64,000 nt of DNA, taken from positions 1-64,000 of IMG/VR virus record IMGVR_UViG_3300003962_000026. One strand, written 5' to 3'. Every line of letters starts with the position of its first letter. Position 1 is the stretch's first letter. Shown here one piece after another: positions 44,068-59,955 of the stretch. Made by a program: the position numbers and the translations under genes. The notes beneath the pieces were generated by a model. That model saw only the letters and a program-made list of their open reading frames with translations, had not been told where the DNA came from and ran no database searches. The DNA is from a virus (taxonomy: Duplodnaviria > Caudoviricetes).

Positions 44068-45339
44068 TTACACATGTACAAAGTGACATCCTTTTACCTC
44101 CTTAAATGATTTAGCTCCAAATCTATCTATTATACTTTTGAAAAATGTCCAGTCGCTGGAATGGGACATGTCATTCCATCCTATTTCACAGGCTATATCC
44201 TTCTTAAGAACTACTCCACCACAATCTACAAATCCTAGCTGCAATTTAGTATTCATTATCCCAAATCTATAAGTCCCATCTGGTTGATTAGACATATAAC
44301 CATGTACAAACTGGGAAAAATAAGTAGCAATAGCACTTGGGTTTAATTTAAAGACCTTCAAAGCTTCCTCTAGGGCAATAGGACTGTAGAAATTATCATC
44401 GTTGCTAATTACTATATAATCAGTATTTTGAGCAATCCTACCTTCTTTAATCTCGTTTAAGTAGAATTTTCTTAGAGGGTGGCCATAATTACCTAATCTT
44501 ACAGGATGCTCTATATAAGTTATCCTTTCATCATCTATGGCATTTATTACTCTCCGTAGATTAGTAGTATTTATACCATCATGACATAAGATTAATTCCC
44601 AGTTTTCATGGGTTTGATTAATTAAAGAGCTTATAATTTGAGGATATCTGTTATATATAGGGCATATGAATGTAACTTTATCTATACCTTTAGTAAGGAA
44701 TCCAAACTTTTCATTAAATTCATTCCATCTGTTTAAATGTAATCTATTTCCTAAATCCCATATAGGAGATGTTCTTAAATCACATATTTGGACAGCTTCC
44801 AAACCCATTGCTTTAATTTGATTTAATAGAGTGTCCTTACCCCTATGCTCAAATAGGTAGCAGTCTTGCTTAGTTAACATGGGATTCCTGGGAAATATTA
44901 ATCTTCTACTTACATCCTTGGTTATACAGAAACCTGTAGTTCTTATATGTAATTTTACCTCTTTTGATATTTCCATACAAGTACACCCTACTCCCGCACT
45001 GAATTTATCCAGAAACTTCTGTATAAAATCCTTATCCATAGGTATGGAATCGTCAGCACACCAAATAAGTTTATCCCAACTATTATTAAAACCTGATAAT
45101 CTTTCCCTGCAAATATCCTGTAATGCACCTATATCCAAACCCCTATTAATCCTTGGTATATATTTTACCCCATACTTATTACATAGAGCTCTGAAAGGAG
45201 CACAATCACCTATTTTATCATAGTTATGAATTATTACCAGTTCACCACTCTTTTGACATTTATCCCAACACTTTAACCAACGCTCAATGTTTAGCAACCT
45301 ATTATATACGCAGACAGCTACAATTACTTTCTCATTCAT
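44068..45339 (-). CDS. Tandem two-domain GT-A (GT2-like) glycosyltransferase
   Basis: VAVCVYNR...WCADD and FICPIYNR...WELILCHDG...VISNDDN. Confidence 0.8.
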   Translation of the reverse strand: MNEKVIVAVCVYNRLLNIERWLKCWDKCQKSGELVIIHNYDKIGDCAPFRALCNKYGVKYIPRINRGLDIGALQDICRERLSGFNNSWDKLIWCADDSIPMDKDFIQKFLDKFSAGVGCTCMEISKEVKLHIRTTGFCITKDVSRRLIFPRNPMLTKQDCYLFEHRGKDTLLNQIKAMGLEAVQICDLRTSPIWDLGNRLHLNRWNEFNEKFGFLTKGIDKVTFICPIYNRYPQIISSLINQTHENWELILCHDGINTTNLRRVINAIDDERITYIEHPVRLGNYGHPLRKFYLNEIKEGRIAQNTDYIVISNDDNFYSPIALEEALKVFKLNPSAIATYFSQFVHGYMSNQPDGTYRFGIMNTKLQLGFVDCGGVVLKKDIACEIGWNDMSHSSDWTFFKSIIDRFGAKSFKEVKGCHFVHV

Positions 45340-45341
45340 AT

Positions 45342-45983
45342 CTAAACTACTCCCTCCATAACAGCTTTCTTTATGTCTTTATTTCTCTTTTCATCTGTTT
45401 TATTATATTCTTCAGACCAAAGAACTTCAACTAAAGACCTTAAATTTTCAATTCTTTCTTCGTAGTAACTATCATCCCTGTTTTGCTTACCGAGTTTTTC
45501 ACCTATCTCTTTAAGATTACCTTCTTTCAGAAAGTACTTTATCCATTTATAGTAATCTCCTACCTTATCAGCTACACAAAGACCTCTTAATTCCTTTTCT
45601 ACATAAATCCTACTACCAATTACCACTACATCTTTACAACTGGCTTCAGCTATCTTTAGGCTACTTTTAACCCAATTCTGGCTATTATCTTCCAAAGGAG
45701 CTAATAATATAGAAATGTCATCATATATCTCCATATAATCATGAACCCCCTTAGCAGGAATTGTAACTACTTCCATATCTCTGTGAGAATCGGTAAACAT
45801 TTTAAGAATTTGTTCCCAATTTTTATCTCCTTTAACATATCCTCCTACTACAAATCTACACTTCTGTCTTATCTCTTGGTCACAAGCCATTTTCTTAATA
45901 ACTCCTTTTAAAGTTAAAAGGTCTGGTAAATGTGAAATGGAATGACATATTCCAATACTAATTTTTTCTGAATATTCTATCAT
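45342..45983 (-). CDS. GT-B glycosyltransferase, C-terminal Rossmann half
   Basis: IGICHSISHLPDL...LLAPLEDNSQNWVKSSLKIAEA, a GT4-like donor-binding motif. Confidence 0.75.
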   Translation of the reverse strand: MIEYSEKISIGICHSISHLPDLLTLKGVIKKMACDQEIRQKCRFVVGGYVKGDKNWEQILKMFTDSHRDMEVVTIPAKGVHDYMEIYDDISILLAPLEDNSQNWVKSSLKIAEASCKDVVVIGSRIYVEKELRGLCVADKVGDYYKWIKYFLKEGNLKEIGEKLGKQNRDDSYYEERIENLRSLVEVLWSEEYNKTDEKRNKDIKKAVMEGVV

Positions 45984-46857
45984 AATAAAGTTTGTTGTAA
46001 TGTTTTGTACATAATCCTAATCCTCTATGCGGTTCTCCACAAATATAACACTTTTTATCTTTAAAATCTTTAACTTTGTCAAATTTCTCCTTCTTTCTTT
46101 TCAAGTAAATCGTTGCATCCTTGTATAAATATTCTCTGATTTTCTTTAGTTGAGAATTTCCTCCGTAACTTAACATTAATATATTTGGCTTTTGACAAGC
46201 CTGTTTATACATCTTTGTTCTATCTAAACCACACTCCTTCATTAGTATTTCTTGTATTTTCTCCATTAAAGTAACGTTTCCCATAAAAGCAATTCTGTAT
46301 CTCTCAGAGTTTTTACCCATGTTTTTAAATATACTACCATCTCCATCAAATACTCCCCTTATGAAATGTGACCAATACTGCTCTTCAATAGGAGGAAAGT
46401 AAGTATAATGACTTTTAGCAGGAATTACTCCTAATTTACCTAAATCATAAACCAACTTTTTTGAAGTAAGACTTAGTCTATATAGTAGTTTATGATGAGG
46501 TTTTGCACTAGATTTTCTTATTATTTTTAAAGTACTAGTTGATTTGGTGTATTTTAAAAACATTTCTAAAATATAACAATCTTCTTCTTGTAAAGCTATA
46601 CGTAAAGAGCTATTGTAAACATTACCATCTGCAACTATAAGACCTAAAAAATAAGCTTTAGCTTCGGAGTCAATAACCTCGAAAAAATCTTGATTAAAGA
46701 AGTCTAATCTTCTTTTAGGGCATCTGAAGGTTATATTATACTTTTTTAACAAATTTAAGACAGTTTGGCTGCAAACTGAAAATTTTTCAGCACATTTTAT
46801 AGAACTATTTCCTAAAATGTAATAATTTATAATTTCTTGCTCCTTTTCTTTTGTCAT
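45958..46857 (-). mobile_element. LAGLIDADG homing endonuclease inserted inside the GT-B gene
   Basis: YFLGLIVADG and FIRGVFDGDG motifs, N-terminal HTH, C-terminal CxxC..GLC..HY. Confidence 0.88.
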
Positions 46858-46858
46858 A

Positions 46859-47368
46859 TTACTTCTTCACAAATTGACCTTGTCCATATGGTAAAAAATT
46901 ATAACTTATTTGTACGAATGGATTTAATTTAAGAAACTCAGATGCAAGATGGGGAGAACTCGTTACAACTGCATCTGCACAGCTAACACTTTTAATCATC
47001 CAATCTCTTATATAGCTCCTTATTCCTGGTTGATTTTTGTAAGTGGGGTTATTGGGAGCAGGTATTCCATCATCGAAATCTTGTATCCATTTACAATTGT
47101 ACTTTTCCTTCCAATTTGTTAAATCAGAGACATAATTATGTAATATCCAAGTAGTATAGATAATATCATATTTTTTGAAATGTTCTTCAGTTAATACGTA
47201 ATTACCCTTTTCGCAAGTCTCAAACTCTACTTCTAATTCATGGGAAACTTCATCTATCATTACTATTTTTCCATTTAGATGGCTTAACGGAAGCTCAACA
47301 CGATGATACCTCGTTCCTGACCCCTCTTGAATTAAACCTAAAATCCTTATTTTACCTGTTTCTTTCAT
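46859..47368 (-). CDS. GT-B glycosyltransferase, N-terminal half
   Basis: SGTRYHRVELPL, QDFDD, ADAVVTSSPHLA...YNFLP; likely start ATG 47368 (TAATG coupling). Confidence 0.75.
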   Translation of the reverse strand: MKETGKIRILGLIQEGSGTRYHRVELPLSHLNGKIVMIDEVSHELEVEFETCEKGNYVLTEEHFKKYDIIYTTWILHNYVSDLTNWKEKYNCKWIQDFDDGIPAPNNPTYKNQPGIRSYIRDWMIKSVSCADAVVTSSPHLASEFLKLNPFVQISYNFLPYGQGQFVKK

Positions 47369-47841
47369 TATTTCCAATTATTTATACAATTATAGATATA
47401 TTCCTCACTTAAATCATCTTTGATTACTACACTACTACCAAAACCATCCTGGTCATTGAATCTTAAAGTATATTTTCCCTTTTCCTAATCAAGATATATT
47501 GTTTCACTTTGGTCAGCATTATCCAACATATCCTTTATTCTCCATGACTTATAAGCTTCATCTAAATTCCTTGTAAATGGTCTTCCAAACTCTTTTTCTA
47601 ACCACTCATGCAGTTTTACTACGTTCTCTCCCCACTTTTCCAAGAATCTAGCCTTCTTTCTTTCTCCCTCCTCTCTCAATCCTTTCTGGAGCCTTTCATA
47701 GGTTTCTAGCTGCTCTGGAGTTAATTCTATACCCATAACTTCCATTAATCCTAGATATGATAACTGCCCCATTTGAATAGTAAATTCATTTCCTTCTTTT
47801 ATCTGTTGGTATACTCCTCCTTTTATTTCTTTTTTACTCAT
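47368..47841 (-). CDS. Hypothetical protein (118 aa to TAG at 47485; 157 aa if TAG read through)
   Basis: Frame stays open after the TAG until the TAA overlapping the next ATG. Confidence 0.55.
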
Positions 47842-48053
47842 ATTTTCTCTATTTTGTTTCCATCTTTATCTAATTCGTAAGGAGGAGTAAATTCAAAAGT
47901 AAAAAATTTCTCAATAGTAGTATTTGCATAACCATAAGGACTATCAGTACAAACTTTACCATTTTCATAAGTGTATTCTATAAATCCTTCCTTATTAGCT
48001 CTTATAAACTTTAAAGTAGAATTTTCCTTAAATATTTTCCTAATCTCTTCCAT
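47838..48053 (-). CDS. Hypothetical protein (71 aa)
   Basis: ATGA coupling. Confidence 0.55.
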   Translation of the reverse strand: MEEIRKIFKENSTLKFIRANKEGFIEYTYENGKVCTDSPYGYANTTIEKFFTFEFTPPYELDKDGNKIEKI

Positions 48054-48055
48054 TC

Positions 48056-48277
48056 CTAATCCATTGTGTGAACTGAATCCATATCTGATTTCTTATCTTC
48101 TCTTATACTTATTGTAAATTCTGGATAAGTAGGACTAAATGGCCCAGTAAGAAAGATACCTTCTCCATCACCTATCATTACAGCAGGTCTGAAACCATAT
48201 TTTCTAAAACTCTCATCATTAATCTTATCTACAATTCTTTGAACTTTCTCTTTATTTCCCATATTTTTCTCTTGCAT
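48056..48277 (-). CDS. Hypothetical protein (73 aa)
   Basis: Tightly packed operon ORF. Confidence 0.5.
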   Translation of the reverse strand: MQEKNMGNKEKVQRIVDKINDESFRKYGFRPAVMIGDGEGIFLTGPFSPTYPEFTISIREDKKSDMDSVHTMD

Positions 48278-48770
48278 TAACTATTGCCTCTTTATGATTT
48301 TTCTTAGGATGCCCCGACTCTTTTTCTGAATGACAGCCAAGACAGCACAAATATAGGTTATTTTCTTCAAATGCAAGTTCTGGATGCTTTGATTTTAAAA
48401 TTAAATGGTCTACCCAAGCTGTGCTAAACTCTCCATATAACCTACTTCCACAAGCCCAACAGTTCTTATTTTCCTGCTTTAAGTACCAATTATACATAAA
48501 TTCATGTAATTCCTTGGTTTTTATGCTCTTCTCAGCATTTTTAAGCTTCTGTTTTTCCGAAATCTTATTTATAGCCTTTTTAGAGCGTTTTAAGACACTT
48601 TTACCCTTTTTAAGGCTACCACCCTTTTTTTTCATTTTAGCGCCTAAAACAGGCTTAAAACCACTAGATTTTAAAGATTTAGGGGGAAATACCATTCTAT
48701 AGTGCATAGAACAGTATTCCTTACCCCAGATTTTACCATTACATCCCTCAAATTTACACTTTTTTAACAT
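48252..48770 (-). CDS. HNH/NinG-like endonuclease with N-terminal Zn finger
   Basis: CWACG...VDHLILKSKHPELAF..NNL..CCLGCH; N-terminal CKFEGC..KIWGKEYCSMHY; start placed at ATG 48770. Confidence 0.7.
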   Translation of the reverse strand: MLKKCKFEGCNGKIWGKEYCSMHYRMVFPPKSLKSSGFKPVLGAKMKKKGGSLKKGKSVLKRSKKAINKISEKQKLKNAEKSIKTKELHEFMYNWYLKQENKNCWACGSRLYGEFSTAWVDHLILKSKHPELAFEENNLYLCCLGCHSEKESGHPKKNHKEAIVNAREKYGK

Positions 48771-49029
48771 ATTCTTCAGTCCCAAGATTCCAACATATAC
48801 AACTAATTTCATACCCACTATTCATAGTTTCTCTTTGTATCTGGTTAAAGGTATTAGTTAAATCATCACTATTCTGTAAAGTTACATTACAGTTCACACA
48901 ATAATGACTACTTGAATTCTTACCTATACCCCTACTAGCTAAGTTTGAACATAAGGTCTTTAACTTTGAAAGTTCTTCATTCTTGTTAATATACAGTAAT
49001 ATCCTGGGTAATTGTCCTTTAGGTTTCAT
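48754..49029 (-). CDS. Hypothetical protein (91 aa)
   Basis: TAATG coupling to upstream gene. Confidence 0.5.
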   Translation of the reverse strand: MKPKGQLPRILLYINKNEELSKLKTLCSNLASRGIGKNSSSHYCVNCNVTLQNSDDLTNTFNQIQRETMNSGYEISCICWNLGTEEYVKKV

Positions 49030-49412
49030 TATTTCAATATTTTACTTAAATCAGCAGGAGAATAATTATCCCCTTTTAATAGTTTACCATCCCCCCTGTA
49101 CTGAGGTTTCCCATCCTTACCTAATTTGCTTAGATTGCTCCTTTGGACTTCATCAAAACATTCTTCTATTTTATCCTGTAGACCAAATGCTAAAATAGTT
49201 CCATAAGTAACATATAGTAAATCACATAGCTCCTTAGCTACTTTTTCTATACTATCACAATCTAAAATCTCTTCAGCTACTTCTTTATATTCTTCAAATA
49301 TAAGCTTTTCTCTTAGAGAAATAACACTTTCTTCAGGAATACTGACCTTATCTGCATAATATATATTAAACTTCTTGTGAAATTCCTTAACTTGGTTTAT
49401 CTGTTTCAACAT
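49029..49412 (-). CDS. MazG-like / PRA-PH-like nucleotide pyrophosphohydrolase
   Basis: LIFEEYKE...KELCDLLYVTYG...EVQRSNLSKL..DGK...R.DGKLLKG.NY. Confidence 0.85.
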   Translation of the reverse strand: MLKQINQVKEFHKKFNIYYADKVSIPEESVISLREKLIFEEYKEVAEEILDCDSIEKVAKELCDLLYVTYGTILAFGLQDKIEECFDEVQRSNLSKLGKDGKPQYRGDGKLLKGDNYSPADLSKILK

Positions 49413-49647
49413 TATAATTATCCTTTGTAATTGTTAAATAATCAGCTTGTCCACCCATTCTATCTCCATAAATTATTTGAAATTCTGAATTACAAGCAGT
49501 GCATAATCTATCAGTACCCCAACTAGCGTAATCCTGTTTGTCTATCTTTTTATTGTATTGATAAGAAGCTCCGCAAATAGGACAATCATATTCGTGATAA
49601 AATATCATTTCCTGATACTGTATCTCCTCTCCCGTTCTATTTTTCAT
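49387..49647 (-). CDS. Zn-ribbon protein (86 aa)
   Basis: CPIC...CTAC. Confidence 0.55.
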   Translation of the reverse strand: MKNRTGEEIQYQEMIFYHEYDCPICGASYQYNKKIDKQDYASWGTDRLCTACNSEFQIIYGDRMGGQADYLTITKDNYNVETDKPS

Positions 49648-49864
49648 TTTCTAAATGTTTTATAAGTTTCTCTAAATACCAACGACATTTACGAACATCT
49701 TCTAAACCCTTCTTATGAGGATACCTATGTAAATATTTTACAATATTACCTACACATACAGCCTCTATACCTGTTTTTCCATGAGTTACAGCTTCTATAC
49801 AATCTATAGCTTCTATTTTAGCTTGTTTATAATGCTGAGGTTCTATAGGATTGCTTTCCATCAC
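49637..49864 (-). CDS. DUF3310 (SaV-like) protein
   Basis: PQHY...IEAIDCIE...GNIVKYLHRY.HK.GLEDVRKCRWYL. Confidence 0.85.
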   Translation of the reverse strand: MMESNPIEPQHYKQAKIEAIDCIEAVTHGKTGIEAVCVGNIVKYLHRYPHKKGLEDVRKCRWYLEKLIKHLENEK

Positions 49865-49986
49865 TTCTTATGATTTTTAGTTGCTAAATTAACTATCTTT
49901 TCATATACATCCATTGGGATATGATAATAAATCTTACCTATCCACACAGATTTATATTCTTTTAACTCTTTCTTAGTCTGTTTCAT
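49861..49986 (-). CDS. Small hypothetical protein (41 aa, not in ORF track)
   Basis: Overlaps both neighbours; fills the gap. Confidence 0.4.
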   Translation of the reverse strand: MKQTKKELKEYKSVWIGKIYYHIPMDVYEKIVNLATKNHKK

Positions 49987-50557
49987 TTTCTATATATTTA
50001 TCGTAATATTTAAATACCTCCTCTAATTGTTTTTCGTCCTTTATAAAGAAACACCAATCATCTTTTGCTACTTCCTTTTCAATAACATCTATTTTAAAGG
50101 TTTTAGGTTCAAAAGGAAATGATTTAACATATTGTCTACTTCTAATCCTACTTCCATCAGGTAAGTAACCATATCCACTCCAACCATGACCTTTCTGATT
50201 TACCCAAACTATAGCATCTAAATAGTAGCATTTACCATTTCCTAGCTTAAATAGAGCACTGCATCTATTATTTTGATATAACTCCCCTTCCATACTATTT
50301 TCTGTCACATTAATCCACTCTTCCTCTATTCCCATAATAGGACAAATAGGCTTCTGTAAACATAGCTTTTGAATAGTTTGAGATATAGCACTGGCTACAT
50401 ATGGAGCTGAACCACCACTTTGCCCAGAATTACCAAACTTCTCACATAAAGCTAATATTTCAGGTATGAATTCTTCTACTACAGGTCTATTATTCTTCTC
50501 TGAAGACTTAACTAATATGTCTAATTCCCTTTCTGCAAATGTTTTTGTATAACTCAT
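49973..50557 (-). CDS. Conserved-type phage hypothetical protein (194 aa)
   Basis: FGNSGQSGGSA motif; TAATG coupling. Confidence 0.6.
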   Translation of the reverse strand: MSYTKTFAERELDILVKSSEKNNRPVVEEFIPEILALCEKFGNSGQSGGSAPYVASAISQTIQKLCLQKPICPIMGIEEEWINVTENSMEGELYQNNRCSALFKLGNGKCYYLDAIVWVNQKGHGWSGYGYLPDGSRIRSRQYVKSFPFEPKTFKIDVIEKEVAKDDWCFFIKDEKQLEEVFKYYDKYIENETD

Positions 50558-51177
50558 TATTTCCTTATTTTATCTTTTAACAATTCCCAGTCTAGCTCTT
50601 CCTCATCTGGATTAGGAGGACTATCTAATTCAGCATCATCATCTAATATCACATCCAATTCTGTCTCTATTTTCCTTCTTAATTCACTACTTTTAGTAAC
50701 TATACTGTACTCTCTGCTCTTTTCTCCTTGGTTATTAACAAAGTACTCTCTTTTAGCTATAGGTAGCATTTTACTATATTCTCCCCTCTCAAATATCTCT
50801 TTTAAACCTTTATATTTAGGGTGTATGGCAAATTCTATACAAATAGCAAGTACATCTAGGTCATATTCTAAAACATATCCAGGTTCAGTAAGATATACAT
50901 CTCTGAATCTATCCCACTTTTTAAAAGCGTCTAAACTTGGCGTAAAAAGCATAATAAGGTTGTTTTCATCATACTTTTCCATATATCCTCTATCTCTTAG
51001 ATAAATGTCTTGGAACCCAAAAAAGAGAAAAACTTCAAAAGCACTATTCCACCTTCTTATATCTATCTTCATATATTTTGAGGGAGAAAGACATAAACTA
51101 GGCATCATGAATAAAGTAGTTCTATTATTCTTTCTATTCATCATTTGTAAATCTCTTATACTCTTTGTAATGTTCAT
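50557..51177 (-). CDS. Hypothetical protein, crAss-like (about 195-206 aa)
   Basis: TTLFMMP...GF..IY..D...LF.P...GEYSK pattern; start probably near 51144. Confidence 0.55.
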   Translation of the reverse strand: MNITKSIRDLQMMNRKNNRTTLFMMPSLCLSPSKYMKIDIRRWNSAFEVFLFFGFQDIYLRDRGYMEKYDENNLIMLFTPSLDAFKKWDRFRDVYLTEPGYVLEYDLDVLAICIEFAIHPKYKGLKEIFERGEYSKMLPIAKREYFVNNQGEKSREYSIVTKSSELRRKIETELDVILDDDAELDSPPNPDEEELDWELLKDKIRK

Positions 51178-52216
51178 AACAAAACCCTAAGCCCCAATGT
51201 TTTTTATTACATTTTTTACATTTATCTGTAATTATTGTTTTAACTGTATCCATTTTATTCTTTTTTCTTATTAGAAATAAATCTTCACAATCTTCATATA
51301 ACCATTTTCTTATTTTAGATATTTGATAGTTACCTCCCCATCTTATAGTTACTATGCCATCGCTGTAATTTTTTAAAATCATTGTTTTATTGTTATGTAA
51401 ATTACACTTTTTAATTAATATATGTTTTATACTGTCTAATAAATCAATATATCCTGTAATAGAAAACACTGGTTGATTATTAAAATTTGAAAATGTTATA
51501 CATCCATCTCCATCAAACACTCCTCGTATAAAATGGCTATGAAACTCTTCTGGGATGTTTGGAAAACAGGCATGATAAGTTTTATTTCTGTCAACACCTA
51601 ACTTAGCAATAGATTTAGCTAATTTAATAGAAGTTAGACTTAAACGATATTGAACTTTATGGGTAGATTTCTTTGGAATAACTTTACGTAAATTACCCAA
51701 GTAACCAATTTCCTTTGCAAGTTTCTCTAAAATATATCTATCTTCTTCCTGTAATGATATAACTAAAGATTTACCACTATTAGAGCCATCAGCCATTAAA
51801 AGTCCTAAAAAATAAGCTTTAGATGTACTGTTTATAATACTGAAGTAATCTTCATTAAAGAAGAATTTTCTAGGAGTGCGTTCTTTTATTACAATCTTAT
51901 TTTGCGTTAATACCATTTTTACACTACCTTGGTTGCTACCAACAATTCTAGCTACTTCTCTCACAGATATATCTTCTTCTAAATAAAGCCTAACTATTTC
52001 GGCCCTTATTTTATCAGGTATTTTGTCATAATCTTTGAATTTTTTTATTATAACACCCCCCAATCTGAGAATTCTTAAAATAGAGGTAGGTGTACATTTA
52101 TATTTTTTTGAAAGAAAAATAGAGCTTTTTCCACTTAAATATAAAGTTTTTATATCTTCCTTATATTGATTAAGTCTACTGTATCTACGAATTACATTAT
52201 TAGAAGCTCTTTTCAT
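51134..52216 (-). mobile_element. LAGLIDADG homing endonuclease (paralogue of 45958-46857)
   Basis: YFLGLLMADG and FIRGVFDGDG; two N-terminal HTH-like repeats; C-terminal CKKC..HWGLGFCYEHY. Confidence 0.88.
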
Positions 52217-52431
52217 TAAAAAAGACTAGGTTGTATAAAAATTTTATATTTGACCAATAATAATAACATCTCAGGATGGATTAAAATATCATTATTGCAA
52301 AGTATAATAACGTTTTGTTCAGCAATATATCTAGCCTCATTACCAAAATTACTCTTTAATATCTCCTTAATCTCTTGTTTATCCTTTCCATTAGGCTTCC
52401 TTGAAGCTGTTTTCTCATCATTTATATTCAT
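52216..52431 (-). CDS. Hypothetical protein (71 aa)
   Basis: Coupled small ORF. Confidence 0.5.
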   Translation of the reverse strand: MNINDEKTASRKPNGKDKQEIKEILKSNFGNEARYIAEQNVIILCNNDILIHPEMLLLLVKYKIFIQPSLF

Positions 52432-52622
52432 ACTATTTCAATGTTAAATTGTTTAGCAATTTCTAATACTTCATTTGGAATTTCATCTCCAGTTTCAAGA
52501 TTTATTAATCTTATTTTACCAGCTTGTTTTGATATTATAAGTTTCATAATATCCCTCAATGCCTTATTTTCTTCAAATAATTGCTTCTCGTATTCTGTCA
52601 TAAACTTCTTATTTTTATTCAT
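52428..52622 (-). CDS. Hypothetical protein (64 aa)
   Basis: Coupled small ORF. Confidence 0.5.
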   Translation of the reverse strand: MNKNKKFMTEYEKQLFEENKALRDIMKLIISKQAGKIRLINLETGDEIPNEVLEIAKQFNIEIV

Positions 52623-52845
52623 TTTCTATCAATTTAACTTTATAAGTATATCCTCTCCTATCATAAAATCCTAAACTAAGATAAAACAATACAACCATAT
52701 ACCAAGGATGTTGTTTAGGTAATGATAGAACTCTTAAATTTTTACTACCACAGTAGGTTAAAACATCATTTCTTTTGACAAATCCATCTGCATCTTCACT
52801 TAACTTTAGTTCAAATGGCTTATTATCTAGCTCTGGTTTATTCAT
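52615..52845 (-). CDS. Hypothetical protein (76 aa)
   Basis: TAATG coupling to recA. Confidence 0.5.
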   Translation of the reverse strand: MNKPELDNKPFELKLSEDADGFVKRNDVLTYCGSKNLRVLSLPKQHPWYMVVLFYLSLGFYDRRGYTYKVKLIENE

Positions 52846-53864
52846 TATACCTCTTTTAAACCTTCTAATACTTTTATCTTTATCTCCTCCAGTAAATCTG
52901 GATTATCCTTAAGGAAGTTATCTAATTGCTTTTCTCCTACTCCTAACTTAACGTCTCCGTAGCTATAAGTATTACCTTGTTTGGTGATTAAACCTTGTTC
53001 TATAGCTAGATTAGTTATTTCATATTGAGGAACTACTCCTTTACCAAATTCTACGTAATATTCAGCAGTCAAATATGGATTTGAAAATTTATTCTTAGTT
53101 ACCTTAGCTTTTACTACTATACCATGTACACCATCATTATCTTTATCTAAGGACTTAGATAGTTCTATTTTCATTGCCGTGTAATACTTTAAGCTTTCTC
53201 CACCACTCTCGACATAAGGATTACCATAGCCACCGATATTAATTCTGTACTGATTTAACAGTACCAATCCACAGTCTGACCTCAATAATTTAGCTGTAAT
53301 AAGTCTAAATCCCTGACTTAACATCCTGCTTAATTTACCTATACCAGCAGTATCAGCTCCCTGAAACTCACTTTTAGGAGTTAAAGCAGCTATACTATCT
53401 ACTCCTATAACTCCAAACTCATTAGTTTCTATAAGCTCTGCACAAATATTCAGCCATTCCTCACCACTTATTTCTTCAGCTTTTAACTTGCTTGCGTTAA
53501 TTATATATAAATTGTTTAAATCTACCCCTATATTTCCAGCATATTTCAAATCTAATGTACCTTCTATATCTAAAAATGCACAAGGTTTACCACTCTTTTT
53601 CTGTTCTTCTCTAATTATATGTAGTAGTAAAGTAGTCTTACTTGCCTGATTCAAACCTACTATTTGAGTTATTTTACCACCTTTTGGTATACCCCCTATC
53701 CCAGTGGCTAAGTCTAAAGTTAAACTACCAGTACTAGTAACTTCTGTAACTGTATCAAAAGTATCTGCTTTAACTATACTACCCTTTCCAAACCTCTCCT
53801 CTAAAGCTTGCATTTTTTCTAAAAATTCACTGTTTTCTTCTGTTTTTGCCTGTTTCTTTGCCAT
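52845..53864 (-). CDS. recA: RecA recombinase
   Basis: STGSLTLDLATGIGGIPKG, variant P-loop GLNQASKTT, AFLDIEGTLD, VDSIAAL, LNQYR, GGESLKYY, KVTKNK. Confidence 0.95.
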   Translation of the reverse strand: MAKKQAKTEENSEFLEKMQALEERFGKGSIVKADTFDTVTEVTSTGSLTLDLATGIGGIPKGGKITQIVGLNQASKTTLLLHIIREEQKKSGKPCAFLDIEGTLDLKYAGNIGVDLNNLYIINASKLKAEEISGEEWLNICAELIETNEFGVIGVDSIAALTPKSEFQGADTAGIGKLSRMLSQGFRLITAKLLRSDCGLVLLNQYRINIGGYGNPYVESGGESLKYYTAMKIELSKSLDKDNDGVHGIVVKAKVTKNKFSNPYLTAEYYVEFGKGVVPQYEITNLAIEQGLITKQGNTYSYGDVKLGVGEKQLDNFLKDNPDLLEEIKIKVLEGLKEV

Positions 53865-53884
53865 TTATATCTTTATTTAGTCTA

Positions 53885-53916
53885 CAAATATAAAGAAAAG
53901 GAGACTCTTTTACAAA
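53885..53916 (-). promoter_or_regulatory. Bacteroidota consensus promoter upstream of recA
   Basis: TTTG-N20-TATATTTG, exact match to TTTG-N19-21-TAnnTTTG. Confidence 0.7.
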
Positions 53917-53926
53917 TCTCCTTTTC
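53895..53926 (-). terminator. Intrinsic terminator after vWA gene, overlapping the recA promoter
   Basis: GAAAAGGAGA / TCTCCTTTTC inverted repeat. Confidence 0.6.
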
Positions 53927-53950
53927 CTATACCCTTTTTATTTTTGTTAA

Positions 53951-54700
53951 TTAATCGTTACTAAAGAATCCATCATTTTTAACTACTCCTGTACTTACGT
54001 AGCTTGTAGACCTCACTGACCTGGCTCTTGTTATATTCTTAAATACATTCTGAGTTCCAATATCAGTAGCCATATAATTCATTGAGTTTGAAGCAAATAT
54101 ACCAATACTATCAGCTACAGCTTTAACAGACTTCTCACTACCAGAACCTATATAATTAATAGTCCAGTTATATACAGTTTTCATTTTCTCAATAAGATTC
54201 TTTATATCTTGTTGATTGTAATTTCTTGAGTTATTCTCCTCACCATCTGTAAGTATGGATATAGTAACACTAATATCTTTATTATCTATGTTATCTCCAA
54301 GATATTCTGTCATTTGATGAATACCATGACCAATAGCATCGTATAAAGCTGTCATTCCACCAGGTCTATAATTATAGTCATTTAAAGTACCTACTTCTAC
54401 GCAAGGAGTATTAAGATACGTATCTTTTATAGTTCCATAGCTACTGAATTCAATTAAAGAACAATAAGAGGGAACTTTAGTATCTTCATAAACCTTTTTA
54501 ATACCACCTATAAGCTCATTAAAGCCATTCATAGTAGCTTGTTTAATACTATTCATAGAGCTACTTTTATCTAAGATAAACATATCATAGATAGCCAGGT
54601 TCTTATTTGTTGCCTTCTTTACCTTCTTTTTTACTGTAGTTTTCTTACCTTTTGAAGTAAATCTACCATTCTTATCTCTTACGTTATAATAATTTTCCAT
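53951..54700 (-). CDS. von Willebrand factor A domain protein
   Basis: MIDAS DKSSSM, PGGMTALYDAIG, ILTDGEEN. Confidence 0.85.
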   Translation of the reverse strand: MENYYNVRDKNGRFTSKGKKTTVKKKVKKATNKNLAIYDMFILDKSSSMNSIKQATMNGFNELIGGIKKVYEDTKVPSYCSLIEFSSYGTIKDTYLNTPCVEVGTLNDYNYRPGGMTALYDAIGHGIHQMTEYLGDNIDNKDISVTISILTDGEENNSRNYNQQDIKNLIEKMKTVYNWTINYIGSGSEKSVKAVADSIGIFASNSMNYMATDIGTQNVFKNITRARSVRSTSYVSTGVVKNDGFFSND

Positions 54701-54708
54701 TGTTTTTA

Positions 54709-55149
54709 TTATTTTTTAAGTGTATATTTAATCCCTTTAGATATAACCATATTTAAAGTTCTATGGTCTACTTGTCGCATTGGATGTCCTGAAGTAACTT
54801 TTAAGTCATAAACATTACTTCTACCCATCTTAGGTTCTGAGCCTACTAAATGACCTACTATAGTTCTATCAGCACCATCAGCTTTCACAAAGTCTGCTGT
54901 AAATACAGAATCTCCTACATTTTCAAGTACTTCTACCATTTCTGTACGTGAAACTTTCTTTACTTCATCAAATTGAGAAGCACTCTTCAAACTCTTTTCA
55001 ATCAAATCCTTACCCCGCATAGTAAAATTATTACCAAACTGGTCTTTTACCTGAATTTCTCCAGCTCCCTCATTCTTTCCTGTAACTGTAAGATAATAAG
55101 TCCCACTTAATACTTCCCCTACTGCAATCTTTTTAAATTCTGTTGTCAT
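54709..55149 (-). CDS. Hypothetical protein (146 aa)
   Basis: Downstream of a consensus promoter; F.K.DG..R motif. Confidence 0.6.
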   Translation of the reverse strand: MTTEFKKIAVGEVLSGTYYLTVTGKNEGAGEIQVKDQFGNNFTMRGKDLIEKSLKSASQFDEVKKVSRTEMVEVLENVGDSVFTADFVKADGADRTIVGHLVGSEPKMGRSNVYDLKVTSGHPMRQVDHRTLNMVISKGIKYTLKK

Positions 55150-55172
55150 TTTTTATTGTTTTAATTTGTTTA

Positions 55173-55203
55173 CAAATATAACTAATTAGTCTTTAATTTC
55201 AAA
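55173..55203 (-). promoter_or_regulatory. Bacteroidota consensus promoter
   Basis: TTTG-N19-TATATTTG. Confidence 0.7.
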
Positions 55204-55256
55204 ATAGAATATGCAAGTCTACATTTCTCTTTTGCTACTTTAGAATCATTTTTCCT
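55182..55256 (-). pseudogene. Stranded relic 3' end of the 5'-3' exonuclease gene
   Basis: RKNDSKVAKEKCRLAYSILKLKTN* aligns without gaps to exonuclease QYNGQEVAKDLLKKTYKLLKLHNI. Confidence 0.55.
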
Positions 55257-55814
55257 TTAAAAATTCCAAGCTTTCCCCGTTAGAATTTTCCATATATGTC
55301 TATAGTCTACATTATATAAACTGGCTATCTTTGAACTTTTCATTCCATTCTTACTTAATTGTTTTATTTCTTCCACTTTTATGAAGTCTAACTTCACTCT
55401 ACTAGATGGGTGTTTATTTTTAAATGTATGTCTTGTATTCTCAATTTTTGTACTCCACTCCAAATTCCAGTCATTGTTATTTGTCTTGTTGCCATCAATG
55501 TGATTAACTTCTGGTTTATTCTCAGGGTTTGGAATAAATGCTTGAGCTACTAATCTGTGAACTTTGTAACTATATAATTTACCTTTATTGTTGGTTATAG
55601 TTGTTAATATATAACCATTCACTTTATCAAAACGTAATTTTCTTATTATTTCTTTGGTAATAAACCAAAAATTATGGTAATTATTAAATTTTTTACGAGG
55701 GAGAGCTTTTAATCTACCTTTATTGCTTATTTGATACAAATTTTCATATCCTTCAATATCTTTCCAGATTTCCCCCTCAATATTTTTAAGGCTTACATTT
55801 TTCCAATATTCCAT
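55257..55814 (-). mobile_element. NUMOD4-HNH homing endonuclease
   Basis: EIWKDIEGYE.LYQISNKGR (NUMOD4); HRLVAQAFIPNP...VNHIDGNKTNN...NLEW. Confidence 0.92.
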
Positions 55815-55931
55815 AAAATAAAAAAGGTCTCAAACTCAAGTGTTTATGTAGTTATCCTGCGATAATACCTTGAGAATGAGACCAATAAGTTGTAAATAGT
55901 AAAGAATAACCACATAAACAGTACAAATATA
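55815..55931 (-). promoter_or_regulatory. Promoter plus A-B-A'-B' structured leader of the HNH gene
   Basis: TATATTTG at 55931-55924; A 55919-55906 pairs with A' 55855-55842; B 55883-55869 pairs with B' 55840-55826. Confidence 0.65.
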
Positions 55932-55936
55932 CTAAA

Positions 55937-56740
55937 TTATTTGATATCTAGGTTGTCATAAAAGTCAATTTCTTCTATATTATGTAATTTTAGTAATTTA
56001 TAAGTCTTTTTAAGTAAATCTTTAGCAACTTCTTGTCCATTATATTGGATATACGTTTCATAAATTCTTCTTACAAATTGATAGTTACTCATACCTAAAG
56101 ACACAATTTTAGAAGCTTTCTTTGGCCCTAGACCCTTATTTACTTTAACATTATCGCCAGCGTCCCCTGTAAGAACCTTCAAAGCTAGATGTAAACGACT
56201 TTCATCCTCTGTCATATAAGACCATTCCTGCTTTACGTAGTTATAATGAATTCCGGGAATGCTTTTTAAGTCTTCATCTATACCACATATAATGGCTTCA
56301 AAATTAAGCTTTTTACTTATAGTATAGATTACATCATCTGCTTCTCCTATGGGTGCTTCATAAGCATAATGGTGATTAACTAGATAGTTATGCAGGTGTC
56401 CTACTATAGGTAAAGGTTCTTCTCTATTCTGCTTATATGTCTCCAGAATCTTCTTTCTAAAGTTGTTTTTACCCTTAACACACATGAAAATACCAGATAT
56501 ATCATAGTGCTCCTCTATAGCGTTAAGAATCTTAAATACCCATTCAGTTACTATACCCTCAGCTATTCCATACTCAGTTTCTGTATATTCAGGTTTCTTA
56601 TTACCTTCTTCATCCTTACCTGTATAAGCACAAATGAAGGAAAGGCTATCTGCGTCAATAATAACAACCTTTCCCTCTTTTTGCTCTTTATTCTGAGGAG
56701 GATTAAAGCTACTTCTCTTATAATCTGACCTACTTGCCAT
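55937..56740 (-). CDS. 5'-3' exonuclease / RNase H (FEN/T7 gp6-like)
   Basis: IIDADSL, KGKNNFRK...YKQNR, EADD, DEDL, GDAGDN, GLGPKKA. Confidence 0.88.
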   Translation of the reverse strand: MASRSDYKRSSFNPPQNKEQKEGKVVIIDADSLSFICAYTGKDEEGNKKPEYTETEYGIAEGIVTEWVFKILNAIEEHYDISGIFMCVKGKNNFRKKILETYKQNREEPLPIVGHLHNYLVNHHYAYEAPIGEADDVIYTISKKLNFEAIICGIDEDLKSIPGIHYNYVKQEWSYMTEDESRLHLALKVLTGDAGDNVKVNKGLGPKKASKIVSLGMSNYQFVRRIYETYIQYNGQEVAKDLLKKTYKLLKLHNIEEIDFYDNLDIK

Positions 56741-56874
56741 TATGTTCTTACTATAACAATTTTAATAAAAAGGAATGCATATCTAGTTCTTTTGAACCCC
56801 GGAATGTCAAATTCATTATCTATAAAAGGTATCAAATTCCATGTTAATGGTGTTATTTCTAATCTTATTTTCAT
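56740..56874 (-). CDS. Small hypothetical protein (44 aa, not in ORF track)
   Basis: TAATG coupling to the exonuclease. Confidence 0.4.
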   Translation of the reverse strand: MKIRLEITPLTWNLIPFIDNEFDIPGFKRTRYAFLFIKIVIVRT

Positions 56875-56877
56875 ATT

Positions 56878-57054
56878 TTAATCATTTAAACAGTCATTTA
56901 TAATTTTATTCTGTAGCCTATAGAAGTAATCCTTTTCTACCAAAGATACACTTCCATCTTCTTCTACCTGGTTATAGTAGGGAGTTTCCCTGAATTCATT
57001 CTTAAGACATACTATAATTTGTTCTGCTAATGCTTTCTTTTCCAGTTCTGTCAT
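56878..57054 (-). CDS. Small hypothetical protein (58 aa, not in ORF track)
   Basis: MTELEKKALAEQ...; fills gap. Confidence 0.45.
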   Translation of the reverse strand: MTELEKKALAEQIIVCLKNEFRETPYYNQVEEDGSVSLVEKDYFYRLQNKIINDCLND

Positions 57055-57060
57055 ATTTTT

Positions 57061-57276
57061 CTAACATTTAATTTCTTCTATTTCTCTATCTATATCTTTA
57101 ATTTTCTTCTCTATATCCTTCTTAGCCATTTGGATATACTTCTCATTTGTATCTTTAGATACTCCTTCTAATTCTATATTATACCTATGTGATAACTGTA
57201 GTACTTCAAGATTATCAGTATATCCAGACCTTAACTTAAGTAAATCAGCTACCTTTTCTGCTATTTCTTTCTTCAT
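57061..57276 (-). CDS. Hypothetical coiled-coil protein (71 aa)
   Basis: ATGA coupling. Confidence 0.5.
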   Translation of the reverse strand: MKKEIAEKVADLLKLRSGYTDNLEVLQLSHRYNIELEGVSKDTNEKYIQMAKKDIEKKIKDIDREIEEIKC

Positions 57277-57461
57277 TCCTTATCTTTTAAAAATCCTTCA
57301 ATTTTACCTGATTCAAATTGAGCCCTTACTTCAGTATGAAAATCTTCATAAACAGCTTCATCTATAAACTTCTTTACCCCTATTAATAATTCTTTAGCCC
57401 TTTTATAATTATTAATCAGAGCTATAATTTCTGGATTATCTGTATACAATATTATACTCAT
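57273..57461 (-). CDS. Hypothetical protein (62 aa)
   Basis: ATGA coupling. Confidence 0.5.
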   Translation of the reverse strand: MSIILYTDNPEIIALINNYKRAKELLIGVKKFIDEAVYEDFHTEVRAQFESGKIEGFLKDKE

Positions 57462-57610
57462 TTTTCTATTGTTTTTAGAAACTGTTCTACCTGTCTATTA
57501 TTCTGTACATCTTTTAATAGCTCTATAGCTTTAGGATAGTAAACTTTAACTATTTTCTCTTCTAACTCCTTCTTTTCCTGTATTTTGCTCCAACTCTTAG
57601 GATAATCCAT
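57458..57610 (-). CDS. Small hypothetical protein (50 aa, not in ORF track)
   Basis: MDYPKSWSKIQEKK...; overlaps both neighbours. Confidence 0.45.
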   Translation of the reverse strand: MDYPKSWSKIQEKKELEEKIVKVYYPKAIELLKDVQNNRQVEQFLKTIEK

Positions 57611-58013
57611 AACTTTCTAATATTTCTTTCTCGCGACTAATAATTTCGTCCTCTAGTACACTTCGATATAATGGGGATATACCTATCTGGGTTTGTAATA
57701 TAGCATAAATATGGTCAATATCCAAGTCCTTTATAAGAACATACTGGGTTTCAGGTAATCTGTTACCTTCTTTATCATAATTCTTTCCCCATTCCATTAC
57801 AGCTCTTCGCGTTTCATGTTTACCGTCATCGTAAACTGTTAAATCTTCATAAGGTATAGTATTTACACTTCTTCTGAAATACATATCATTACCACCATCT
57901 GTCATGTATACCTCTCCATTTTTATCTGTGTGTATCTGGAAATCATGTCTATACCTTGAGTGTAAAACTGTACCATCTGGAGTTCTTATACTATTACGTA
58001 AAACTTTTCTCAT
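57597..58013 (-). CDS. Conserved-type phage hypothetical protein (138 aa)
   Basis: N.I.TPDG..L.S..RHD...H.D.NG..Y..DGG motif. Confidence 0.6.
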   Translation of the reverse strand: MRKVLRNSIRTPDGTVLHSRYRHDFQIHTDKNGEVYMTDGGNDMYFRRSVNTIPYEDLTVYDDGKHETRRAVMEWGKNYDKEGNRLPETQYVLIKDLDIDHIYAILQTQIGISPLYRSVLEDEIISREKEILESYGLS

Positions 58014-58591
58014 ATTGCTAAATATTGTTCTAAACTTCTTGTTTTGAAATTAAACTTTCTATCCTTTCCTTTACTAGTTTTGAGTAAGGTTTTTGGCATA
58101 AAAGTCTTTGAAAATAAGTCATCATTCTTAACTACCTGACAAAATATCCCATACTTTGCCCAAAGCCATTTAATATTTAAAGTTGCTAACCTTGTCATAT
58201 TGTTAAAGTCAAATGAAGGTTTTGATTCTATATAGCTGATTCCCAATTCATTACAGATAAAATAGTTATTCCACTTATATCCAAATTGGGTACAGAATTT
58301 TTTAACCCCTTTATCCTCCCAATGAATTTCAAAGTCCAAATTAAAACTGTGCCCGTGTAATATAGTCTCTGTTTTTGGTCTACTTTTAGTTTTGAGTTGT
58401 TCTACATAATTATTAACCAAACTATCACTTAATAAGTAGCTTTGACCTCTTTTGAATTCTTTTATAAACCCATTATCTTTCAATTCCTGCCAATAATGGC
58501 ACATATAAATTTCTCCGGGTGAATCGCAAGGTATCTGGTTAAAATATACAGGCTCCCTAGTTTTTGGTTTATTCTTTTTTTTTGATTTCAT
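58010..58591 (-). CDS. PD-(D/E)XK nuclease (possible resolvase)
   Basis: SFNLDFEI...YIESKP catalytic pattern; DSPGE helix. Confidence 0.6.
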   Translation of the reverse strand: MKSKKKNKPKTREPVYFNQIPCDSPGEIYMCHYWQELKDNGFIKEFKRGQSYLLSDSLVNNYVEQLKTKSRPKTETILHGHSFNLDFEIHWEDKGVKKFCTQFGYKWNNYFICNELGISYIESKPSFDFNNMTRLATLNIKWLWAKYGIFCQVVKNDDLFSKTFMPKTLLKTSKGKDRKFNFKTRSLEQYLAI

Positions 58592-58592
58592 C

Positions 58593-59327
58593 TTATTTTC
58601 TTTTTAATTCCCATCTGAACCCACCAGCAACTCTAAAGGGGTATTTTGGATTATAGCTATTTTGTATTTTTTTAAGGTCTATGTTTAATTCATCGCTGGC
58701 TAATCTGGCAGATTCCCATTCTTTTATAAAATTTCCGTCTAAATCTTTTTGAATCACTTTATTAGAATTTGATAATGATACTTTTTTATTATGTTCTTCA
58801 GATTTAGGTTTACCTTTAAGAGGACTGGGTAAATTTTTTCTTTTAGATGGTTTTCTTGGAAAAGTTAATTTTACACTATCTGATATTTTCTTTCTTGTTT
58901 CATCTGAATGAATTTTACCAGTCATTGGATTTATATACCCTTCTTGATATTTTCTTTTTTGTACTTCTTTTTGAAGATTTATGGTTTCTTGTGACATACC
59001 AGGATTAAGATATGGGCCTGTAGGTGCTATATTATACCCATATTCCCTATTATGTGTATTTAGCATATTCGCCCACCAATTTTCCATTGATGGTAAAAAC
59101 TCTCTTTCATATTCTTCTAATATTTCAAATTCAAAATTTTTGTCACCATACTTATTAAAAGAGTTTTGAAGATATTTATTACTGTGCGAATTATTTAATA
59201 GTTGTCTTCTATGCTCATACATTCTACTAATTGCATTTGCTGAATAACCTACTATTGCCTTTTTATCTATAGCATTACTTATAATATAGATTGCTGAAAC
59301 ATCATTTTTAAGTCTTCTTCTACCCAT
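58593..59327 (-). mobile_element. GIY-YIG homing endonuclease with NUMOD3/NUMOD1 tails
   Basis: AIY..SN...IVGYS...R..EH...H.N..LQ.SFNKYG..NFEFEILE, E, GYN; HSDETRKKIS and VIQKDLDGNFIKEWES. Confidence 0.88.
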
Positions 59328-59470
59328 AATAAATACAAAAGCCTCAAATTCAGGTGCTTACGTCATCTACTCTTGATAGATAACCCTGAAAATGAGGCTT
59401 TAAAAAGTTTGTTAATATTGTAGATGACATAAGCATTACAATTATACGTAAACTTTTTCACATTTCCAAA
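59328..59470 (-). promoter_or_regulatory. Promoter plus A-B-A'-B' structured leader of the GIY-YIG gene
   Basis: TTTG-N20-TATAATTG; A 59434-59420 pairs with A' 59370-59356; B 59401-59385 pairs with B' 59354-59338. Confidence 0.7.
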
Positions 59471-59556
59471 TTCGTAAGTTTGAACTTATCACAAGGAATT
59501 CCGTTAAAATATACTGGTTCTCTTACTTTAGGTTTATTTCTATCCTTTTTACTCAT
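59458..59556 (-). pseudogene. Stranded relic 5' end of the PD-(D/E)XK nuclease gene
   Basis: MSKKDRNKPKVREPVYFNGIPCD(KFKLTNLEM*) vs MKSKKKNKPKTREPVYFNQIPCD at 58591. Confidence 0.85.
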
Positions 59557-59563
59557 ATCATAT

Positions 59564-59803
59564 TTATTTCTTTTTATAATGTATTCTACATAAACCCTTA
59601 GAGAAAGCTCTTTTACTACACTATTTACAAGCTACAAATTCTCTCTTTCTTCTATGGGCAAATGTTCTGTATCTGTCCTTCTTTTTAATTAGTTCTACTA
59701 CTTCTTTTACTTTAGGTAAACCTCTTTTAACAATTATTTGTCTATGGATATCCTGGATGTAGCAAATACCCCAATCATTGAACCTTTCTTTAAATGTAGC
59801 CAT
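59564..59803 (-). CDS. Small Zn-finger protein (79 aa with internal TAG at 59621-59623)
   Basis: ...VAC-K-TAG-CSKRAFSKGLCRIHYKKK-TAA. Confidence 0.6.
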
Positions 59804-59805
59804 TT

Positions 59806-59955
59806 TTACTCTTTTAGGTAATCAAATCCTTCTATTATACCTCTTACATAACCTTCAAAGTTCTTATCCCTACCATCATTAGTATTATCACTTTTAACCT
59901 TATCCTCAAGCAAAGATACATAATATTCTTCTATTTCCTGTTCTTTCTTTAACAT
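59806..59955 (-). CDS. Small hypothetical protein (49 aa, not in ORF track)
   Basis: MLKKEQEIEEYY...; fills gap. Confidence 0.45.
   Translation of the reverse strand: MLKKEQEIEEYYVSLLEDKVKSDNTNDGRDKNFEGYVRGIIEGFDYLKE

Follow-up and report, generated by a model that had tools for sequence, protein, structure and literature searches.

How can a free-standing homing endonuclease gene occupy a coding sequence when neither an intron nor an intein is there to restore the product of the invaded gene? This question is raised by a region (positions 45342-59556) of the virus record IMGVR_UViG_3300003962_000026, in which Pfam identifies five endonuclease genes. The window, i.e. the whole stretch of DNA that was analysed, comprises bases 1-64000 of this 75,947-base IMG/VR record, and searches described as genome-wide covered the whole ~76 kb. 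In this single phage genome, free-standing endonuclease genes lie within coding sequence and no intron or intein is involved: two supply a replacement end for the gene that they invade, and one re-punctuates its target into two open reading frames (ORFs). We think it probable that five free-standing homing endonuclease genes have invaded the region, two of them as cassettes of the mobile ORF (mORF) or gene-hybrid type, one as a splitter and two as ordinary insertions, with a structured RNA leader serving as an attenuator or insulator module.

The minus strand carries every gene from 42 to 64 kb, and all features of the window discussed below lie on it. Pfam placed endonuclease domains at or above the cut-off in four genes, with the GIY-YIG domain just under it, and HNH-1, the remaining gene, also scored just under it. 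All these ORFs are uninterrupted and each has its own start and stop codons. Rfam returned no family at its gathering threshold in the 64 kb, and none even at E<=1 in 55750-59650. Hence, the endonuclease genes are neither within a self-splicing intron nor in-frame intein fusions. The two that carry replacement ends are a GIY-YIG + NUMOD3 gene (58593-59327, 244 residues, homologues 39-42% identical) and a NUMOD4 + HNH_3 gene (55257-55814, 185 residues, Pfam E 6e-12 and 4e-9). They are the sole matches in the genome to GIY-YIG and HNH_3, respectively.

The GIY-YIG gene lies at the 5' end of p193 (58010-58591), a conserved phage gene with 31 homologues and no assigned function (neither Pfam nor PHROG gave a match), which starts 1 nt past the endonuclease stop codon. 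In p193, the working copy of a duplicated gene start comprises the first 23 codons (58523-58591). The other copy is found upstream of the cassette, in a 32-codon ORF (59458-59556) of which the first 23 codons (59488-59556) match p193. When p193 was used as a query against the whole genome, this relic was recovered at 59485-59553(-), with an E of 1.2e-6 and 70% identity over residues 2-24, and shuffling of the flank gave p<0.002. PF06356 is matched by one distant p193 homologue (P0029), which may hint at the fold or function of the protein.

The divergence of the two starts is informative. Over codons 7-23, 12 of 51 bases differ between the relic and the working start, and yet 15 of 17 residues are identical; six of the codon changes are synonymous and two are replacements. 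None of 200,000 simulations placing 12 random substitutions retained 15 of the 17 residues. Such mainly synonymous divergence implies that both starts evolved under coding selection, in different phage lineages, and this supports the import of a foreign start against the decay of a local duplication. The relic begins with MSKKDR, exactly as does the nearest endonuclease-free homologue (P0002, in locus L004), and by our count by eye on the alignment it matches that homologue at 17 of 24 residues, the working start at 12 of 24. Homology in the relic ends after the codon for Asp-23, and its later codons run into the promoter of the cassette. A -33-like TTTGGAAAT element (about 59461-59470) stands there, and the same element precedes the leader in three other cassettes (L017, L018 and L019b); its conservation at this place identifies it as part of the cassette promoter and not as a remnant of the gene. 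Between the end of relic homology and this conserved promoter are ~17 nt of unassigned sequence. No endonuclease gene lies upstream of the p193 homologues of L004, L006 and L019.

The NUMOD4-HNH gene presents the same arrangement at the other end of a gene, a 5'-3' (flap) exonuclease (55937-56740) assigned from the Pfam family 5_3_exonuc_N and the family alignment. Here the working copy of the duplicated end comprises the last ~35 exonuclease codons (55937-56041) together with a promoter box after the stop codon, and the inferred boundary of the duplication is close to exonuclease codon 233. The relic (55182-55256) follows the stop of the HNH gene, in the same frame, and amounts to ~19-22 codons and a TAG. 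After the relic stop comes the -7 promoter box of the next gene (55173-55180), and this TATATTTGTA box is the same as the one after the working exonuclease stop. The duplicated segment thus includes the promoter box of the next gene, and the cassette may have recombined at the box. This relic is more diverged than the first. A pairwise Smith-Waterman scan did not single it out genome-wide (it ranked ~7th among the non-self matches). A profile built from the C-terminal 45 alignment columns of 12 homologues, from which the protein of the window was excluded, ranked 55185-55256(-) second out of the 3,533 segments of a six-frame translation of the genome, with an E of 1.1e-4, the next segment having 0.19. 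The flank shuffle test gave p=0.002. The 3' pair is too short and diverged for the analysis of synonymous sites, which was confined to the 5' pair. In the closest exonuclease homologue (P0033) and in that of L019, ordinary genes follow directly, with no endonuclease.

The third invaded gene was split and received no replacement end. LAGLIDADG-1 (45958-46857, 299 residues, two LAGLIDADG motifs, Pfam LAGLIDADG_3) separates the two halves of a glycosyltransferase. The N-terminal half (46859-47368) matches residues 1-164 of the intact 587-residue homologue P0112 (47% identity, E 1e-44) and positions 9-131 of PHROG 7162. The C-terminal half (45342-45983) matches P0112 residues 175-371 (45% identity, E 9e-56) and PHROG 7162 positions 146-306. 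The halves are thus collinear on both references, without overlap, and in many other intact homologues (335-590 residues) the match to the C-terminal half starts near residue 150-180. The break itself is tight. The first half runs to its native ..GQGQF, adds VKK and stops, and the ATG of the endonuclease comes 1 nt further on; the ATG of the second half lies within the last 26 nt of LAGLIDADG-1, adds MI and continues with the native EY. This leaves no room for an intron at the break, and Rfam gave no match. LAGLIDADG-1 would thus occupy the linker that joins two Rossmann-like halves in an enzyme resembling the GT-B type, and would give the first half its stop and, within its own 3' end, the second half its start. 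Presumably the glycosyltransferase is made as two polypeptides, and these may function as a two-piece enzyme.

Two side observations belong here. The closest intact homologues have ~570-590 residues, of which ~210 extra C-terminal residues are absent in this phage, and the gene after the split glycosyltransferase is an unrelated 423-residue GT2-family protein (region 44068-47368). Another split gene may exist on a metagenome contig that carries a related GIY-YIG gene (L024:188-2405), where ORFs of 244 and 203 residues match rIIB with a 288-residue ORF between them. On this contig the intact GIY-YIG gene is followed by a 143-residue SegE-like GIY-YIG fragment.

The remaining two endonuclease genes are ordinary intergenic insertions. 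LAGLIDADG-2 (51134-52216, 360 residues, identified by Pfam) is a paralogue of LAGLIDADG-1 (41% identical) and lies exactly at the stop codon of a gene of 71 residues. Its empty site is seen in L004, where the homologues of the 71-residue gene and of the next, 206-residue gene are adjacent, with a 66-nt spacer and no endonuclease. HNH-1 (48252-48818, Pfam HNH E 4e-4, just below the cut-off) is a probable free-standing HNH endonuclease gene. Neither has a relic by the flank tests (p 0.1-0.37 for HNH-1) and neither has the leader. An apparent overlap of the 206-residue gene with LAGLIDADG-2 was discarded, since it vanishes if the start is Met-24/25, as the L004 homologue suggests.

The two replacement cassettes have in common a leader of their own. 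The copy before the GIY-YIG gene (59328-59470) starts with the TTTGGAAAT element, continues with a -7 box (59439-59446) and a structured segment, and ends with a U-tract ahead of the ATG (59325-59327). The copy before the HNH gene (55815-55934) has its -7 box at 55924-55931, a U-tract, and the ATG at 55812-55814. Both can form two interleaved helices. In the first copy, strand A (59420-59435) pairs with A' (59355-59370) and strand B (59385-59401) with B' (59338-59354); in the second, the corresponding segments are 55904-55920 with 55841-55857 and 55869-55883 with 55826-55840. The copies are 78-81% identical over ~125 nt, each folds below its shuffled controls (z -4.6), and there are exactly two in the 76-kb genome, both before endonuclease genes. 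No covariance model of Rfam 15 matches them, not even at E<=1 around both copies.

The leader is not confined to this genome. When metagenome contigs were scanned for its pattern and then searched with covariance models, it turned up in L016, L017, L018, L019 (twice, L019a and L019b) and L022, with E between 1e-20 and 1e-27. L016, L018 and L019a are one locus in three contigs, so that the leader is present on four other metagenome loci. The L022 copy, outside the set used to build the model, was reached independently through a GIY-YIG homologue. Every match ends at the ATG of an ORF; these ORFs are three different GIY-YIG genes, frameshifted in the case of L016, and one truncated Cys-rich ORF of unknown type. 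Pattern scans of IMG/VR gave nothing, and the sole match in a scan of GTDB genomes (L020) was dismissed as chance, because it falls inside a bacterial gene and the model does not recognise it. Upon inspection, L021 has the layout of the leader in a largely different sequence: ahead of another homologous GIY-YIG gene come a -7 box, then A, B and A', with B' immediately next to A', and finally a U-rich segment and the AUG. The model matches neither L021 nor L023, L024 or L025. In L018, a gene of 202 residues lies directly downstream of the leader and GIY-YIG cassette (L018:2487-3145), where L016 and L019 have only ~52 nt; since the flanks of the three contigs are otherwise 92-99% identical, this marks an indel hot spot beside the endonuclease gene.

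Covariation argues strongly for the two helices. Among six distinct leader sequences and 27 column pairs (16 in A-A' and 11 in B-B'), all 162 of 162 cells are paired. Compensatory pairs, in which both sides changed, number 11, eight of them belonging to helix A and three to helix B. Not one shuffle out of 500 reached any of these measures, and slid controls were paired in 30-41% of the cells. Four cells are G-U, and the fold is thus specific to the sense strand; this strand specificity led us to reject a DNA-level cruciform or a protein site. A group I intron remnant was also rejected as the source of the A-B-A'-B' layout, given that Rfam gives no match and that the helix lengths and spacings are unlike those of P3/P7.

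What might this RNA do? The A-A' helix has 16-18 bp and the B-B' helix 13-17 bp, and all six sequences allow a further pairing, of 8-10 bp, between A' and A*, a degenerate nearby copy of A. In six of six leaders the lowest-energy fold is B-B' enclosing a hairpin in which the distal half of A' pairs with A*, and forcing A-A' costs between 0.5 and 20 kcal/mol. B-B' and the U-tract, which are present in all members, are terminator-like. With two conserved partners, A and A*, the A' strand looks like part of a two-state element. We would thus describe the leader as a Bacteroidota-type -7 box followed by an RNA with A-A' and B-B', a U-tract and the AUG, in which A' pairing with A*, together with B-B', would make one long terminator-like hairpin. 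Such a two-state attenuator or insulator might keep the expression of the endonuclease low or timed, and the leader would move as a module with different endonuclease genes. One might go further and tentatively propose an undescribed class of cis-regulatory RNA for the homing endonuclease cassettes of Bacteroidota-type phages, switching between A-A' and A*-A'/B-B', setting the timing or amount of the endonuclease and moving between endonuclease families; this is possible, though our confidence in it is limited.

Regulation of this sort has precedents. T4-type endonuclease genes (I-TevI/II/III, segB, mobE and segF) have regulatory hairpins, late promoters and internal terminators, and the terminators restrict read-through, the rationale being to keep the endonuclease low or late (PMC2988022). 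An attenuator or insulator role for the leader is consistent with this. There too, the gene has its own promoter, and beside it a stable RNA structure that lies shortly before the start codon. Yet, in the phage studied here there is no Shine-Dalgarno sequence to sequester and the structure stops ~10-13 nt short of the AUG; in place of one hairpin there are two interleaved helices with an alternative partner; and endonuclease genes of unrelated families, on different phages, have this leader in common.

A promoter box and a U-tract stem-loop might also make up a block that is no switch at all. The leader could be a composite of promoter and terminator like the T4-type PeSL, acting as an insulator and a recombination point, or a processing site of the RNase III type, which a long irregular hairpin would presumably suit. 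PeSL motifs of T4-like phages are indeed short conserved blocks of promoter and stem-loop bordering mobile or variable genes, and possible recombination points (PMC2839356, PMC4122927). They are composite terminator/promoter sequences that mediate modular exchange (PMC4122927), and the -7 box of the HNH cassette coincides with the duplicated host promoter box, as if it were a recombination site. But in the leader the promoter comes first and the structure second, over ~125 nt, with strong covariation in the long-range helix. A-A' lies outside the terminator hairpin, spans ~65 nt and has eight compensatory pairs, none of which a plain terminator needs, and both A and A* co-vary with A'. PeSLs also recur through hyperplastic regions (PMC4122927), whereas the leader, at two copies per genome, is found only before endonuclease genes. 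We consider an explanation of this kind rather unlikely, albeit one to be taken seriously.

To return to the gene ends, the GIY-YIG and NUMOD4-HNH cassettes would be of the mORF or gene-hybrid type, each lying within the end of a host gene. The host gene would be kept whole by a diverged copy of its end, placed between the cassette and the gene body, while the end that was displaced would remain beyond the cassette as a short relic. We infer that the endonuclease cuts cassette-free alleles close to the edge of the duplicated segment. The cassette would then be copied in during repair, with the gene body serving as one arm of homology and the relic, together with its flank, as the other. Because the working end has diverged, the invaded allele would in turn be safe from renewed cutting.

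This proposal has a close parallel in the gene hybrids of fungal mitochondria, known from atp6 of Allomyces macrogynus and from atp6, atp9, cox2 and nad3 of Glomus (PMC3630166). In these, as here, an endonuclease gene (LAGLIDADG or GIY-YIG) lies between a diverged inserted gene end, joined to the body of the gene, and the native end. The copies differ largely synonymously, and the fungal layout, in which the native relic of a 3' end lies downstream of the endonuclease ORF, has been read as horizontal import by homing (PMC3630166). Our cases differ from these in that they occur in a phage and not in an organelle, that one is a mirror image at the 5' end, with the relic upstream and the new start downstream, and that each endonuclease ORF, instead of being an in-frame fusion with the host gene, is served by a promoter and a structured leader of its own. 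In the 3' case, moreover, either end may be the native one. The split glycosyltransferase likewise has a counterpart in phage Aeh1 of Aeromonas, whose mobE splits nrdA into nrdA-a and nrdA-b (PMC3045599; mentioned in PMC10448857): there too a free-standing endonuclease gene divides a gene without intron or intein, and short tails are added at the break (PMC3045599). It differs in that our splitter is a LAGLIDADG and not an HNH endonuclease, its target is a GT-B-like glycosyltransferase cut at the inter-domain linker, and the tails have 3 and 2 residues. A third parallel is T4 mobA with the gene 60 bypass element, a mobile cassette in which, according to bioRxiv 10.1101/2022.08.31.505936, an endonuclease gene moves together with an additional cis element that keeps the disrupted host gene functional; that element works in translation, through ribosome bypass, whereas the devices seen here are at the DNA level (a spare gene end, or stop and start signals). 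The literature that we searched, a limited collection in which novelty cannot be proven, held no description of terminus replacement in phages or of its 5' mirror form. Terminus replacement and gene splitting are thus a phage version of known designs, to which a 5' variant is added. The conserved and strongly covarying leader RNA looks new.

Could the relics have arisen otherwise? They might be scars of single illegitimate recombination events, in which a piece of a foreign phage, endonuclease and gene end together, was joined without homology on one side; the duplicates would then have no role in mobility and the units would never have homed. The ~17 unassigned nucleotides that separate the p193 relic from the cassette promoter would fit such a join, no second genome with the same junctions was found, and only two of the eight leader-bearing cassettes examined have relics, both of them in the window. 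But 4 kb of this genome contain the layout two times, with endonuclease genes of unrelated families, and it is the established form of a mobile unit in fungal mitochondria (PMC3630166). Besides, both relics are still open and in register, which implies that the events are recent or that the relics are kept. We judge scars of this kind unlikely. Far less plausible is that the duplications arose in place, in tandem around an inserted gene, the outer copy then decaying with nothing imported. The 3' relic is less family-like than the working tail, as decay predicts; yet neutral decay of one copy would not give the mostly synonymous divergence of the 5' pair, matched by none of the simulations, and the start common to the nearest relative sits on the relic and not on the working copy. 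A chimera assembled from two strains of a metagenome, with and without the endonuclease genes, can hardly be entertained even though the record is an uncultured contig rated 61% complete, because the copies are only ~76% identical and were seen to share exact runs of only about a dozen bases, too short for a k-mer join, and because the join would need to fall inside an ORF twice, each time beside an endonuclease gene.

Among these possibilities we favour the homing cassettes with their leader module, but several results weigh against this reading. The working exonuclease tail scores above the relic against all homologues, the nearest included, so that either of the two ends may be the native one. 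The leader-bearing cassettes of L017, L018 and L022 are plain intergenic insertions without relics, and the related GIY-YIG genes of L023-L025 have no leader, being preceded by a plain promoter box or by nothing. We found no relative near enough to offer an empty site with a precise DNA junction, the nearest proteins being 55-75% identical. With only 0-2 nt between A' and B', we consider it sterically doubtful that both long helices of the leader coexist as a full pseudoknot; they may coexist or alternate. Finally, neither p193 nor the genes that follow it show an obvious promoter. These genes would be starved if the leader terminated transcription efficiently, and its terminator cannot therefore be tight; more plausibly it is weak or regulated, or the leader has a different role.

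These points bear on how far the parts of the system belong together. The original prediction described 5'-end replacement, 3'-end replacement and splitting at a domain boundary in this region, together with a leader common to the two replacement cassettes, and all four pieces of anatomy were borne out, the direction of the 3' replacement excepted. It went on to unite them in a class of self-repairing, self-regulated homing cassettes, and here our results agree only in part: the anatomy and the leader stand, but units of these kinds were already known (PMC3630166, PMC3045599), homing would have to be deduced from the anatomy, and leader and terminus replacement are separable. The pattern was also expected at other endonuclease loci. 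This holds for the leader, on its four other loci, and fails for the relics, tests for which were negative at L017, L018, L019a and L022, as they were at LAGLIDADG-2 and HNH-1. A candidate MN(K/R)I relic that we had seen by eye upstream of the L017 cassette failed the same test. LAGLIDADG-1, the splitter, has neither relic nor leader. Leaders without relics elsewhere, and GIY-YIG genes without leader, indicate that this is not one obligate design. Terminus replacement seems to arise when the insertion point falls within coding sequence, and the leader is a separate module. As for presence/absence polymorphism, distant relatives provide endonuclease-free loci for each case (p193 in L004, L006 and L019; the exonuclease in L019 and on the P0033 contig; the glycosyltransferase in the intact P0112 and others; the pair of 71- and 206-residue genes in L004), but precise junctions were not seen, since relatives so distant do not define them to the base.

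If the leader does form such a class of cis-regulatory RNA, then together with spare gene ends, or with stop and start signals, it would let cassettes inhabit coding genes without splicing. In annotation, short relics and split genes beside endonuclease genes will be mistaken for tiny ORFs, truncated genes or paralogues; for phage pangenome tools, the fragmentation of genes by endonucleases is already a routine problem (PMC8351571). The leader can be used as a search model for further cassettes, and it gives a testable handle on the regulation of endonuclease genes in phages of hosts without Shine-Dalgarno-led initiation.

The phage itself is isolated. Neither DNA nor protein searches found a close relative among GenBank phages or in IMG/VR. 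The DNA of 54700-59900 matched GenBank phages only in the HNH gene, which is present in unrelated phages, and searches of IMG/VR for the locus with p193, the exonuclease and the GIY-YIG protein, each singly, returned nothing. In a large protein collection, the nearest homologues of p193 and of the exonuclease are 75% and 55% identical, respectively. The host is probably a member of the Bacteroidota, a view that fits the TAnnTTTG boxes standing before genes and the presence of two giant ORFs, of 3996 and 2838 residues. An assignment to Crassvirales, assumed at the outset, could not be confirmed: PHROGs gave no match for three large ORFs of the virion region, and protein searches against GenBank phages showed no crAss-like relatives, one DNA match of the HNH gene being to the uncultured phage 'cr271_1'.

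The region hosts a replication and recombination module, with rIIA- and rIIB-like proteins, the 5'-3' flap exonuclease, RecA, MazG-like and Tad3-like proteins, endonuclease VII and glycosyltransferases. A homologue of the Tad3 family of type I Thoeris inhibitors (49973-50557, Pfam E 7e-23) and a MazG/PRA-PH-like pyrophosphohydrolase (49029-49412) are in one operon. In related phages, the same module includes dGTP_diPhyd_N (PF18909) proteins, on the P0033 contig and at L006:9089-9964, where the gene is next to a GIY-YIG gene; the ORFs of the window that were scanned with Pfam include none.

Further endonuclease elements lie beyond the window, bringing their number in the 76 kb to at least seven. 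A DnaB-like primase/helicase of 659 residues, G000:C1:72227-74206 (-), also given as L015:9227-11206, contains a LAGLIDADG intein, with Hom_end and LAGLIDADG_3 at residues ~271-365. The helicase homologue of L016 matches residues 1-68 and 406-657 contiguously and thus represents an allele free of the intein; the classical route of protein splicing is therefore also in use in the phage genome studied here. Directly downstream of the helicase is a free-standing LAGLIDADG_2 gene of 297 residues, G000:C1:71310-72203 (-) or L015:8310-9203 (Pfam E 7e-31). Within the window, a 60-residue gene upstream of the p193 relic (59564-59640) ends at a TAG, and read-through of this codon would extend a zinc motif of the CxxC...GLCxxHY type, a motif that is also present at the end of both LAGLIDADG proteins.

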